This document shows positions 48,019 to 62,701 of a DNA stretch of 64,000 nucleotides, in pieces. This stretch comes from Eledone cirrhosa (taxonomy: Eukaryota), in the NCBI GenBank assembly GCA_964016885.1, contig OZ024748.1, forward strand, positions 54,498,001-54,562,000. The letters run 5' to 3'. The notes under the pieces are model-generated. The model had not been told where the DNA came from and did not search any database. It saw only the letters and a list, made by a program, of their open reading frames with translations. Each line of letters opens with the position of its first letter. Within the stretch, counting starts at the first letter, position 1. The position numbers were made by a program, and so were the translations under genes.

Positions 48019-48162
48019 GGACGCAGTCCAGAATTAGCCGTCGAAACGGCTTGAGCTCAGCTGTCGGGGTCTTACTGGTTCCTATTACCCACTCTACTAC
48101 CTCAAGTATTGAGTACTTTGGTGCGTTATGGTCCACCTGGTTCCTTACCACATTTCCTTCGT
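48019..48162 (+). mobile_element. TA-inserted mini-element, 'P-Q' family (collinear form)
   Basis: Module P (agaattagccgtcgaaacggcttgagctcag..ggggtcttact) followed by the reverse complement of module Q; (TA)n on both sides. Confidence 0.75.
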
Positions 48163-48208
48163 TATATATATATATATATATATATATATATATATATATA
48201 TATATATA

Positions 48209-48496
48209 TATTGTTATACTTGGGAAGGGTCATATTTGTGTATAATAATATTACCAGAATTAATAACAGAACACACTCACTGTTTGTTTGGTTTTCGCTT
48301 CTGTGTCTTTTATATCGGTTAATTTAATTTATTCGGTCCTCAATGTTACCATTGACTGACCAATGGTCAAAAATACAGATACAGTATAGACACAAACACA
48401 TATACATGTGACAAATATGACCCAAATATGACCCTCCCCAAGTATAACAATATTTGTTTCGACACACGATTTCATATCAAAAACCTCGCAAAACTA
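48209..48496. mobile_element. PLE-type element of the 12658-13647 family
   Basis: ~200 bp matching the left arm of 12701, then an inverted ~30-bp terminus plus tail (tttcgacacacgatttcatat..cctcgcaaaacta). Confidence 0.75.
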
Positions 48497-49499
48497 TATA
48501 CACACACAAGCGCGCGCACACACACACACACACACACACACCTATTGACCTGAGGCAGTAATTTTACAAGTTTCACGTTACTAAACATATTTGCACAAAC
48601 CTTTTCTGAGATAACATACACACATACACACACACACACACACACACACACACACACACACACACACACACACACACACACACACACACACACACACACA
48701 CGTTATACATAATCATACATATATATGTATGGTTATGATTAAACATAAGCATTGATATACACACGCACGCAGACATTATACGTAAGCACGCACATGCGCA
48801 CACACATGTATATATACACACACACACACATTTACATGGATATAATTAAATATATGCATATATGTCCTCATGGATGGAAACCATTAAATATATACATACA
48901 TACACATAGTATATATATACAAGTATATATATATATATATATATGTGTGTGTGTGTATATATATTTGCCTGTGTATACATTTATATATACATGCATACAT
49001 ATATATATATATACACACACATATATACATATACTTATATATATATAATTTATATATGATATATATGATATATATGTATACGCGTATATATATATATATA
49101 AAATATATATATATATATATAAATAATATATTATATATTTAAAATATATATTATATATATATATATATCCATGTATGGACATGGTTAAACATATGCATTG
49201 ATGTATACACACACACGCACGCACACACATACACACACACACATATCGATCTTAGGTCATTCTGCCCCACACCCACCCCCACCCCATCGATATCTAGTCT
49301 GTTTCTTTGATTAGTTGTTTCAGCTATCACAGATCTTTTATTTTTTTTAGATGTCCTTTTTTTTCTTTTCGTTTTTTTTCTTTTCCTTTTCGCTCTAAGA
49401 GTAATTATGTTGAGGAGGCGACCCTGAGACACAGAAGCGTTGTCACCTCACTAGAGAGTTCTGGAATAGCTGTCATCATGATGATGGTGATGATGATAA

Positions 49500-50270
49500 T
49501 TGTGATGACGACGATGACGCAGTTGGTGGTGGTGTTGTGGTGATGGTGGTGTGGCGTTGGTGTTGTAGTGCTAGTGTTGTGGTGGTGGTGTAGTGGTGGT
49601 GGTGGTGGTGTAGTGGTGGTGGTGTAGTGGTGGTGGTGTTGGTGGTGTTGTGGTGGCGTTGTCGTGGTCGTGGTGTTGTAATGGTGGTGTTGTCGTGGTG
49701 ATGGTGGTGGTGGTGTTGGTGTTGTAATGGTGGTGTTGTCGTGGTGTGGTTGTGTTGTGGTGGCGTTGTGGTGGTGGTGTTGGTATTGTGATGGTGTTGT
49801 TGTGGTGGTGATGGTATTGTAATGGTGGTGGAGATGGTTGTGTTGTGGTGTTGTGATGGTGTTGTTGTGATGGTGGTGGTGTTCTGGTGGTGGTGTTGGT
49901 GGTGTTGTGGTGGCGTTGTCGTGGTGGTGTTGTAATGGTGGTGGTGTGGTGGTGATTGTGTTGTAATGGTGGTGGTGATGGTGGTGTTGTGGTGGTGTTG
50001 TCGTGGTGGTGGTGTTAGTGTTGTAATGGTGGTGTGGTGGTGGTGATGGTGGTGTTGTGATGGTGGTGTTGTGGTGATGGTGTTGTGGTGGTGGGTGTGG
50101 TTTTGTGGTGGTAGGGGTGGTTTTGTTGTGGTGGTGGTGTGGTGGTGGTGTTGTGGTGGTAGTGGTAGTGGTGGTGTTGTGGTTGTGGTGGTGGCGTTGT
50201 GGTGGTGGTGTTGTGGTAGTGGTGGTGGTGTTGTTGTGGTAGTGGTGTGGTGGTGGTGGGTATGATGATT
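49500..50270. repeat. GGT/TGT low-complexity region
   Basis: Read directly. Confidence 0.9.
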
Positions 50271-52002
50271 ATTGTGATAACCATTACGATGACAATGGTT
50301 TGATGAACATTGAAACGACACGTCTATGTATATATATATATACGTGTGTATATACGTATATATATATAAGGGTATATATATACGTGTGTATATATGTATA
50401 TATATACGTGTGTATAAATGTATATATATAAGGGTGTATATACGTATATAGTGTATATATGTATATATATAAGGGTGTACATAGTATATATATATATATA
50501 TATACATATACATACATAGATATATATATATATATATATATATATATATATATATATATATATATATATGTGTGTGTGTGTATGTGTGCAGAAAGATGCA
50601 AAGTACTTACAAGTCTCAGCATATAAAACATGGAGACATATAAAGATAAAAAAACAACAATGTACTGAACACAGGGTCCACATTAATGGACATGGTTGTG
50701 TGTGTGTGTGTGTATAATGTGTGTGTGTGTGTTTAATATGTGGTGTGTGTGTGTGTGTGTGCAAATATCTATGTATTTGTGTATTTATATATACTGTGTG
50801 TGTTTCAGCATGAATTTCGACACACATACATACACACATACATACACACATACATACATACACACATACATACACACACATTCACACATACATACACACA
50901 CATACACGCACACATTCACACGCACACATACACATGCACACATTCACACATACACTCACATATACACTCACATATACACTCACACATTCACAGATTCACA
51001 GACACACAAATTCACACACATTCACTCATTCACACATTCACATTCACGCACACACATATATATATATATACACTCACATATATACACACACACACACACA
51101 CAAAGTGAACAGCAACAACGATAAAAATAACCAAAAACTATGATAAAAATATAATAGCTTTGCAAAAGCTGAAGGCCAACTTATGGAGGAGGTTGTCTTG
51201 GTTAGGGCCATTTTATAAAGTTGGTTATATCTAGAGAGAACATGAGATATCGCTTAGATATCACACACACACAGTCTCTCTCTCTCTCTCTCTCTCTCTC
51301 TCTCACACATACACAGCTTCTCTTTCTCTGTATCACATACACCAACAGAATTACAAACATACGCACACGTACACACACATACACAAACATACATATACAC
51401 ACATGCATATACACACACATACAGACCCACCTAAAGATTTACAAACCTGAACACATACACACACAGATATTGACAGGCAGACACACTGTCACATATATAC
51501 TGTCACACACACACACACACTGTCACAGACACACACACACACACTGTCACAGACACACTGCCACATTCACAGACACACACACACTGTCACAGACACACAC
51601 ACTGACACACTGTCACAGACACACACAGTGTCACATACATACTGTCATAGACACACACACTGAAACACACACACACACACACACTGTCACAGACACACAC
51701 ACACACTGTCACAGACACACACATCTGACTCTGATGAAAGATATATTACTGCAGGAATTGTACCTAATTTGGTGCCATTGAAGATGTATCATCGATGGTC
51801 TGAAAGCTGTAAAGAAATCCCGACACACACATATATATATACATGTATATGTATGTATATATATATATATATATATATATATATATATATATATACATAT
51901 ACATATATATATATATATATACATATATATATATATATACACATATATATACATATATATACATATATATATATATATATACATATATATATATATATAC
52001 AT

Positions 52003-52120
52003 GAAGGCATGTGGCTGAGTGGTTAGAGAATTGGATTCACAATCGTAAGGATGTGAGTTCGATTCCTGGACCAGGTGATGCGTTATGTCCTTGAGCAAGA
52101 CACTTTATTTCACGTTGCTC
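52003..52120 (+). mobile_element. SINE-C tRNA head
   Basis: A box tggctgagtgg, B box gttcgattcc, then tgtccttgagcaagacactt. Confidence 0.8.
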
Positions 52121-52262
52121 CTTCTACCTGGAGTTGCGACCGATAGATAGTATTAGCAATTGGAAAGACCAACGGAAACATTGTTTCCTCGGTCCGATTT
52201 GACGAAAGTCGATCGTTCCTTATATATACATATATATATATATATAAGTTTTAATATAGATG

Positions 52263-52313
52263 AGATTCTACAGGACTATAACTGTTTCATTCTTTAGAAA
52301 TCATCAGAAATCT
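52263..52313 (-). ncRNA. Type-I hammerhead ribozyme (canonical core)
   Basis: Minus strand: agattt CTGATGA t ttc taaa gaa t GAAA cag ttatagtc ctg TA| gaatct; about 16 nt from (TA)n. Confidence 0.6.
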
Positions 52314-61297: not shown

Positions 61298-61533
61298 CCC
61301 CCCCCCCCCCCCCCCACACACAAACACAAACACAAACACACACACACACACACATATATATATACATATATACATATATACACATATATACATATATAAG
61401 CAGAAGGGATATTTAATTTGTTGGAAATTCAACAAATATAAATGTTTATAACTGATTCAGAGCACTCGACCGTTTCTGGAGTAAATATTCAATGATATTA
61501 AATAAATGGAAACTATATTTATAAAACCATATT

Positions 61534-61595
61534 TATTCTATTATATATATTTCAAGGGTACCAAAAACTTTGGTACGCTTTCATCAGATAAAATA
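61534..61595 (-). ncRNA. Mirror hammerhead ribozyme
   Basis: Exact reverse complement of 61720-61781. Confidence 0.8.
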
Positions 61596-61719
61596 CAAAA
61601 TGTGTTTTATAAATTTTGACATAGCCAAGAAACATATCTTATCAGTTGAATTATCCAAGGAAAATTCAACTGATAAGGTATGTTTCTTGGCTATGTCAAA
61701 ATTTATAAAACACATTTTG

Positions 61720-61781
61720 TATTTTATCTGATGAAAGCGTACCAAAGTTTTTGGTACCCTTGAAATATATATAATAGAATA
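61720..61781 (+). ncRNA. Minimal type-I hammerhead ribozyme
   Basis: tattttat CTGATGA aagcgtaccaaa gtt tttggtaccctt GAAA t atat a TA| atagaata: 8-bp stem I, 11 of 12 pairs in stem II, palindromic stem III. Confidence 0.8.
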
Positions 61782-61852
61782 AATATGGTTTTATAAATAT
61801 AGTTTCCATTTATTTAATATCATTGTGTGTGTATATATATATATATATATAT

Positions 61853-61986
61853 AATCAGATATGGTGTGCTAAGATACCAAGTGGACCATAACGCACCAGG
61901 GTACTTGATACTTACTGCTGCCTTAGTTCGGATATAGCTGTCGAAATGGCCGAAGCTCAGCCGTCGGGGTCCTGACTCTTTTCCAA
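61853..61986. mobile_element. P-Q family mini-element (inverted form, diverged)
   Basis: gtggaccataacgcacca..gtact..atactta, then tagctgtcgaaatggc..gctcagccgtcggggtc; (TA)n on both sides. Confidence 0.7.
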
Positions 61987-62581
61987 TATATATATATATA
62001 TATATATATATATATATATATATATATATATATATATATGAATGAAAAATGGCGAGCTGTGTTGTTGCAAATAGGATATATATAAAAATGAAGAATTAGA
62101 AATAGAAGCCAGGACTATCTGTCATCAGTGGTCTACTAGCCCTTATAGATATTTCTTCGCATTGCGGACCATATACTTCAGGCTAGGGCGATGCAATAAC
62201 TAAATTAAGTTATTGGGATAAAAAGAGTTGGGTGGAGAAAGAGAGACAGGTAAAGAGAGGAAAAAATGAGAAAAATCAAGTCAATAATTCATGTTGAACA
62301 TAAGAACGTGCGAATATTGACGAGAAAACGAAAGACACATCTTGGCCGTGCGAATGTGAGCGAGGAAAGAATTTCGTACAGTGTGGGACGATGGAGGAAG
62401 TGAGAGAGAGGGTGAGTAGCAGAGTGAGTGAGTGAAAGTGTGAAGAAGAGGCTAGCCGAGAGAGAGAGTGACTAGCAGAGGGGGTGAGTGAAAGTGAGGG
62501 GGAGGAGAGAGAAGGGGGAGAGAGAAAAAGGATAGCAGTTTATATATATTTATACATGTATGTATATATATATATATATAT

Positions 62582-62701
62582 GTGGTAAGGAACCAGGTGG
62601 ACCATAACGCACCAAAGTACTCAATACTTAGGGTAGTAGAGTGGGTACAGAATTAGCCGTCGAAACGGCTTGAGCTCAGCCGTCGGGGTCTTACTTGTTC
62701 C
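62582..62701. mobile_element. P-Q family mini-element (inverted form)
   Basis: Q (62582-62647) joined to P (62645-62701) through a gta overlap; TA flanks. Confidence 0.75.

Follow-up and report, generated by a model that had tools for sequence, protein, structure and literature searches.

How do head-to-head repeats that carry a tail on one arm only come to lie in (TA)n tracts? The question is raised by a window of animal DNA from Eledone cirrhosa (contig OZ024748.1), the window being the whole stretch of 64,000 bases analysed here, which is rich in microsatellites (32,733 bases are masked by Tandem Repeats Finder, TRF). Four repeat families in it, termed P-Q, F2, F3 and F4, have this layout. 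They are probably the 5'-truncated ends of several families of Penelope-like elements (PLEs), and probably arose through two separate primings of the element RNA, each at one of two fixed sites.

An original prediction, made from the bases, had presented the layout as a new architecture. It is instead the published insertion signature of PLEs, as seen in the available portions of Craig et al. (2021; PMC8557442) and Arkhipova et al. (2013; PMC3846280). Published accounts of PLEs already include the inverted truncated copy, the one-ended tail, the targeting of (TA)n, the nicking of both strands and the two internal starts of reverse transcription. What is new is no more than a hint that each end was probably begun on its own, at one of two fixed places on the RNA.

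The P-Q family

The window holds four copies of the family, which consists of a module P and a tail Q (Q' when inverted).

48019-48163, plus strand: collinear, tail-bearing copy, with P at 48024-48085, a TAT internal site at 48083-48085, the tail Q at 48086-48163, and (TA)n on both sides
62582-62701: Q'-P chimera, with the tail arm on the minus strand (62647-62582), the P arm on the plus strand from 62645, and GTA common to both at the junction
61854-61986: diverged Q'-P chimera, with Q' at 61854-61913, 11 unassigned nt at 61914-61924, and P from 61925
52881-53250, minus strand: tail-less, non-inverted P copy that ends at the same internal TA, with ~310 nt extra upstream (5')

The four copies are those that the original prediction listed, collinear at 48019, with a flipped tail at 62582 and 61853 (the latter in fact starts at 61854, and the unassigned nucleotides lie at its junction), and cut at the common internal TA at 52881, where the upstream extension had been missed. 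The gta microhomology that it noted at the 62582 junction is present. There, Q' matches 48086-48153 in reverse complement, P corresponds to 48026-48085, GTA links the two, and the tail arm halts at the internal site. The outer tail end is looser than this inner site, as the 62582 copy is 10 nt short. The 61854 chimera belongs to a subfamily that is ~75% alike to the chimera at 62582. Three further TAT/ATA sites lie inside P or at its ends, and TA occurs in it at 11 sites. Upstream in the 52881 copy, a TATA-like box (52968-52961) and the A of an initiator-like TCAGT (52938), spaced by 30 nt, form a predicted promoter.

Neither a CUGANGA core nor a linked coding sequence (the Naiad arrangement of N-terminal GIY-YIG, CxC linker and C-terminal reverse transcriptase, RT) was found for P-Q in the window. 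Lack of a canonical hammerhead combined with a (TA)n target agrees with the Naiad clade but is not specific to it. A loose motif likeness, and no more than that, links P with the 3' ends of Naiad_Obim and Naiad_Ovul in the portions of PMC8557442 available; exact motif searches for P-Q in the consensus sequences seen there were blank. A 6-bp hairpin around CGAA is present in P (48036-48051) and in the diverged copy (61936-61951), where, judged by eye, two pairs have become G-U type on the plus strand and one is broken.

Fixed 3' ends and variable junctions

Are the ends of these elements fixed? At 17 of 20 element ends at least three TA units lie within 3 nt, although the ends were set by eye and the count leans in favour. 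The same measure gives 2 of 42 BLAST-piece ends of a ~190-bp SINE (short interspersed element)-like repeat taken as control (Fisher p=2e-10), 38 of 402 non-repetitive island boundaries, and 1.0% of unmasked positions. The enrichment of (TA)n at the flanks, which the original prediction had named as a check, is thus present.

Public sequencing data allow the P-Q ends to be viewed beyond the window. Four of nine listed runs (X1, X5, X6 and X7), from three organisms, were placed on a reference consisting of 48009-48175. This yielded 17,277 contigs from X1, 23,734 raw restriction-site-associated DNA (RAD) reads from X7, 40 contigs from X5 and 10 from X6; the X1 and X7 counts refer to organism A. 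Statements on loose ends concern the best-supported ends, with 356 further, weaker ones outside this set. The 7180 X7 molecules that end at 48032 were excluded, as this is an AATT site and the end is likely an artefact of the RAD enzyme.

Exits after 48085 run into (TA)n in all four runs (75 contigs in X1, 3430 reads in X7, 3 in X5 and 1 in X6), so the peak at the internal TA that had been predicted is there. In X7, 11,928 reads span 48087, whence ~22% of the combined counts stop at the inner site (reads, not loci), and the TA beyond the tail end is covered by ~10,700 reads. The exits at 48076 (27 contigs) and 48152 come from subfamily variants, in which (TA)n begins at the same two boundaries, for the former at the inner one. 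Only 48083-85 and the tail end are found among the best-supported exits to (TA)n. Both 3' ends of P-Q are peaked, the inner one sharply. As the other TA sites of P-Q are not strong exits, pairing alone does not select the site. At the inner site P-Q, F2 and F4 have a TAT/ATA-type patch, and F3 is one base off; the share of positions taken up by triplets of this type in the four families is 2%, 12%, 9% and 14%.

In contrast to the 3' ends, the inversion junction varies. Ten head-to-head joints are listed, with tail-arm sides at 48063, 48066, 48079 (four joints), 48082, 48089, 48096 and 48107. The fixed-site architecture that had been proposed therefore stands for the 3' ends, but the junction moves between 48063 and 48107, and the outer tail end is less strict.

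An eleventh opposite-strand joint (48085 to 48175) is tail-to-tail and outside the count of ten. It is found in 39 X7 reads (5 starts), runs from the P end to the tail end through TA, and is read as adjacent insertions in one tract or as tandem Q'-P units. In X5 and X6 an identical flank precedes a tail-only copy, with a loose end before 48107; this flank, common to organisms B and C, likely represents one orthologous old insertion.

The same layout in three other families

12646-13647 (F2a): tail-bearing arm on the minus strand, 13376-12646 (tail 12700-12646); tail-less arm on the plus strand, 13377-13647
48209-48496 (F2b): long tail-less arm on the minus strand, 48407-48208; short tail-bearing arm on the plus strand, 48414-48496
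61399-61825 (F3a): palindrome of 336 bp (61490-61825, 98%) and a 91-nt tail at 61399-61489
4213-4343 (F3b): chimera with arms that do not overlap; tail arm minus, short arm plus
42443-42739 (F3c): diverged F3 relative from a tile-wise inverted-repeat scan; short arm minus, tail-bearing arm plus
58288-58505 (F4): ~90-bp arms head to head, with a ~14-nt tail on the right; single window copy

In F2, F3 and F4 copies one arm bears the tail and the other stops at the tail boundary, and, taking the four families together, the tail is on exactly one arm in 8 of 8 inverted copies examined. The layout that had been claimed for the three families thus holds, with the F2a tail starting at 12646 instead of 12658 and with F3c as an extra copy. 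The F2a arms are 99.6% alike over 271 bp, and the F2 tails measure 43 and 55 nt. The tail arm is the longer arm in F2a and the shorter one in F2b, so that neither arm is always copied from the other. In F3b the tail arm ends 3 nt before the internal site, and the short arm begins 4-8 nt past the predicted hammerhead cut. The polarity of the arms, with 3' ends outward, is set by the hammerhead in F3 and the open reading frame (ORF) end in F2, and is presumed for P-Q and F4.

Three other loci have a related appearance. An old 400-bp palindrome at 14758-15160 (74%) has outward GAAAC motifs and may be another PLE stub or a miniature inverted-repeat transposable element (MITE). The islands between TA tracts at 43048-43456 and 14588-14729 carry a CGAAAC motif and are possible further PLE families; the former has 47-bp inverted arms (43056-43256) and a long extension on the right.

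Penelope-like hallmarks

What links these repeats with PLEs? Two features stand out.

61720-61781, plus strand: minimal type-I hammerhead motif in F3a, with an 8-bp stem I, CUGAUGA, a stem II paired at 11 of 12 positions, GAAA and a palindromic UAUAUA
13230-13376, minus strand: 49-codon ORF end resembling the C-terminus of a PLE GIY-YIG endonuclease (R..EA..I....P.LNR), in the unpaired centre of F2a

The predicted hammerhead cut is after 61773, and the mirror copy runs from core to cut at 61587-61542 on the minus strand. A descriptor search of the whole window gave exactly two matches, the two outward-facing F3a arms, and none in 200 shuffles of the unmasked segments. Among eight stretches folded, only the F3a hammerhead region is notable (z -2.5, equalled in 6 of 200 shuffles), and P-Q has no notable z-score. 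In F3c the core is decayed, yet the 8-bp stem I pairs fully in the alignment despite three differences from F3a. A hammerhead-like half core (CUGACGA, bulged U, 6-bp stem, GAAA) lies at 13399 (plus) and 12949 (minus) in F2a, and F4 has an outward-facing GAAAC-stem-GUC half core and AATAAA. A type-I hammerhead within the pseudo-long terminal repeat (pLTR) is thus predicted in F3a only, partial in F2a, F3c and F4, and absent in P-Q.

The spacing of the F2a peptide motif is that of PoseidonFr in the alignment seen in the PMC8557442 supplement, and this spacing also fits Poseidon/Nematis C-termini. GIY-YIG clusters are among the neighbours of the peptide in the ESM Atlas (0.82-0.84, too low a level to be more than a lead). 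Word search, phmmer and Pfam gave no match for the peptide, and its GIY-YIG likeness is taken as a lead only. The PLE link of the original prediction is supported by the hammerhead motif, with the peptide as this further lead.

Two probable priming events and the rival explanations

How might such products form? The GIY-YIG endonuclease of the element would nick both strands of a (TA)n tract, as an anole element does in vitro (PMC11167929, as far as that paper is available). From each 3' hydroxyl, reverse transcription would then start at a preferred site on the RNA, either the tail end or the boundary between pLTR and tail; both end positions are seen in the P-Q reads. The inner site contains an AU patch of 3-5 nt, with which the TA primer may pair. 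Both cDNAs would end early and be joined by microhomology, giving the variable junction that is observed. A tail-end cDNA that stalled on reaching the inner site, or earlier, would give a ~120-bp chimera with non-overlapping arms, and one that read on would give a palindrome. In a weaker part of the scheme, the inner cDNA may often run off the 5' end of the RNA; for P-Q this would be the predicted initiator, and for F3 it may lie close to the hammerhead cut.

The chimeras at 62582 and 4213 favour two priming events. Their tail arms end 0-3 nt from the inner site, as is expected if the second primer blocks the first cDNA, and no sequence is common to both arms; hence fold-back cannot have copied one arm from the other. 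Of the twin priming originally proposed, two priming events remain the best reading for the non-overlapping chimeras, but a single-RNA scheme in the manner of L1 fits only 3 of the 8 inverted copies. The proposal that one start is at the RNA 3' end and the other internal fares similarly: the fixed internal 3' end holds, but both starts are internal in the portions of PMC11167929 available.

Several points weigh against two priming events by PLEs. Arms overlap in 5 of the 8 inverted copies, the same stretch being copied twice, and this needs strand displacement or a second RNA, as single-RNA twin priming does not give it. Later deletion of a palindrome centre may also yield chimeras, and the AU patch may not matter, as the start sites reported in the available part of PMC11167929 are not homologous to the cut DNA. 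The eight inverted copies were largely chosen for this very layout; the four joints at 48079 may stem from a subfamily indel; and RAD read counts represent stacks, not loci. F4 is one copy with a non-canonical core, the 14758-15160 palindrome has no clear tail, and P-Q and F4, to neither of which a coding sequence is linked, are placed among PLEs by their layout. Rfam gave seven weak matches at 61660-61830, with no hammerhead family among them. An autonomous parent with RT and GIY-YIG was not found: in the window no RT accompanies the families and there is no full-length copy, in which partial tandem copies would form direct pLTRs around an ORF, and two metagenome scans (with a 30-nt P motif and with the F2 peptide) were blank, none of their 593 pattern matches being confirmed.

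Could a single priming event suffice? PLE stubs might arise by fold-back or self-priming, with the tail set by endonuclease resolution, and the short chimeras might be palindromes that lost their centre through microhomology-mediated deletion. Both parts of this reading are published, self-priming by Arkhipova et al. (2013, PMC3846280) and resolution of the intermediate by the endonuclease by Craig et al. (2021, PMC8557442), in the portions available. The arms within one copy are 98-99.6% alike although F2 copies differ from each other by ~17%, the F3a centre is a near-perfect hairpin turn, and microhomology is present at the 62582 junction. Long palindromes are, moreover, prone to deletion. 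Nevertheless, the tail-less arm of F2b is the longer one and its tail arm the shorter, so that neither was wholly copied from the other. Random deletion does not foresee tail arms that end 0-3 nt from the inner site in two families, or a P that starts at the same base in the non-inverted 48019 copy; and the reverse transcription starts found in vitro match tail ends (PMC11167929, available part). Single priming with fold-back is thus unlikely, though it has to be taken seriously. It is improbable that one or a few origins gave rise to a non-autonomous mini-element, the ~120-bp Q'-P unit, which then multiplied as a whole. Two copies do lie within 700 bp, and the joint 48026-48089 occurs in two contigs with a summed depth of 58.7, against 6-12 for single long pieces; but the window chimeras come from different subfamilies and have different junctions, and the head-to-head joints listed are ten distinct ones.

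Terminal inverted repeat (TIR) DNA transposons, that is, MITEs with a TA target duplication, would account for the palindromic shape and the TA flanks, and F4 and the 14758-15160 palindrome are MITE-like. Against these stand the asymmetric ends with a one-sided tail, the non-inverted or 5'-truncated copies at 48019 and 52881, the variable centres, the outward hammerhead motif and the GIY-YIG-like ORF end. The symmetric termini and fixed centre of the class are not seen, and a TIR origin, which the original prediction had named as its own refutation, is very improbable. In L1 twin priming two primers from one target give an inversion with microhomology, the internal priming point is variable and the arms have no overlap. 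The repeats do not fit that type, with their fixed inner site and the overlapping arms of five of eight inverted copies. Twin priming by an L1/RTE-type non-LTR element has a potential driver in the RVT_1-bearing, RTE-like fragment at 26.0-27.4 kb. Yet self-BLAST shows no sequence common to this fragment and the four families, to which it is unrelated, and the fixed internal 3' ends together with the hammerhead indicate PLEs; such an origin is extremely improbable.

Possible run-off at a predicted start

Two separate priming events, the reading preferred here, leave a further question: where does the inner cDNA end? The A of TCAGT in the 52881 copy corresponds to 48025, the predicted +1. P starts at 48024 in the collinear copy, at 48026 in the 62582 copy and at ~48025 in the 61854 copy, where the unassigned nucleotides make it ambiguous. 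The P side falls at 48024-48026 in 6 of the 10 listed joints (binomial p=4e-5 against a flat 37-nt window), or in 4 of 8 (p=0.002) without two joints that possibly come from the loci of this window. The short arms of F3b and F3c start within ~8 nt of the predicted hammerhead cut. It is about an even chance that these starts reflect run-off at the RNA 5' end, like strong-stop DNA. The counter-evidence, which is serious, is that the peak falls where homology to the reference itself begins, that one or two joints may be the window's own loci, and that many copies continue upstream of 48025, the majority of loose ends resembling the 52881 upstream sequence (agreement 0.45-0.53).

A more elaborate scheme is possible but rather doubtful, namely, PLE integration by programmed twin priming near the RNA 5' end. 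The protein, a dimer, would use the tail end as the start for one target strand and the pLTR/tail boundary for the other, with run-off of the inner cDNA at the transcription start or hammerhead cut in the manner of retroviral strong-stop DNA. If so, the ~120-bp chimeras would be trapped intermediates that never made the jump to the RNA 3' end, and the tail, inverted copy and pseudo-LTR would be explained in one scheme. No literature linking Penelope with twin priming or strong-stop DNA was found in a search outside which most subscription journals lay.

Other features of the window

The Pfam scan covered 103 ORFs of at least 50 aa and less than 20% masked. Two had matches, and none lies inside the four families. 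The best 150 of 417 Rfam matches over the full window are sub-threshold microRNA and microsatellite matches. A bacterial-type promoter scan, which is not applicable to this DNA, found nothing.

26000-27500, minus strand: frameshifted non-LTR retrotransposon fragment, presumably RTE-like, with RVT_1 (E 1.5e-10) and then a PHD-like Cys-rich stretch (Pfam RVT_1 plus PHD at 26786-27385)
27912-28100 and ~20 other pieces (e.g. 19925, 42246, 56075): the ~190-bp SINE-like repeat, 21 BLAST pieces 72-100% alike, an abundant repeat that has the look of an octopus SINE
31196-39300: ~228 copies of a 35-bp minisatellite with a core 97-99% alike and strong GC skew
55262-55531, minus strand: sub-threshold GATA-like zinc finger match (E 7e-4), perhaps a retroelement remnant

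Comparison with known systems

How do the window families compare with known PLEs? The sources below are cited from the portions available. In endonuclease-bearing (EN+) PLEs such as Naiad and Hydra, the 5' end is described as carrying a 5'-truncated copy in inverted orientation, a tail of 30-40 bp is often confined to one end, and (TA)n is the target. The supplement includes Naiad and Hydra families of Octopus that target (TA)n, and also Penelope-13_HM, in which a copy is inverted and both strands bear a hammerhead (Craig et al., 2021; PMC8557442). The window families are similar in truncation, head-to-head inverted copy, a single optional tail at one end and (TA)n preference. Two preferred 3' termini are seen for P-Q in the reads of all four runs and for the other families in window copies, with tails of 14-91 nt. 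Their tails of ~14, 43-55, 80, 88 and 91 nt differ from the 30-40 nt printed there; the text available ascribes the tail to EN resolution and has no description of non-overlapping chimeras. None of 17 short DNA motifs compared with the consensus sequences seen in that source placed the families.

The purified Poseidon protein of Anolis carolinensis nicks and extends both strands of AT-rich DNA in vitro, and the two internal positions at which reverse transcription begins coincide with tail ends in the genome (Frangieh et al., 2024; PMC11167929). Those start sites lie in an AC-rich stem-loop, whereas the inner site in three of the four window families has an AU patch; inverted copies and run-off at the RNA 5' end are not discussed in the portion available. 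Adineta vaga Penelope elements have head-to-head pLTRs with an optional tail on one, a TATA plus initiator in the pLTR and 5' junctions with microhomology, as in the window; self-priming on an antisense template was proposed, which alone does not yield non-overlapping chimeras (Arkhipova et al., 2013; PMC3846280). Metazoan PLE hammerheads are type-I, with a long helix II and a palindromic helix III, and in truncated PLEs minimal hammerheads occur in pairs, one per strand, at a spacing of 100-700 bp (Cervera and de la Pena, 2014; PMC4209133); both points apply to F3a. F3a differs in having neither the bulged base nor the G10.1-C11.1 pair, P-Q has no core, and those of F2 and F4 are partial. The Drosophila virilis Penelope has an internal TATA-less promoter (PMC2377424), which leaves the reading unchanged, as do PMC12910113, PMC8969392 and bioRxiv 10.64898/2026.07.22.740005.

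The origin of the tail, the inverted copy and the pseudo-LTR is stated to be open in the portions of PMC8557442 and PMC11167929 available. The P-Q chimeras constitute a data set with which two-primer and fold-back models can be separated, as the family offers thousands of reads and very short, non-overlapping chimeras. Its value lies in this test and not in a new element class. Such stubs are easily mislabelled as MITEs.

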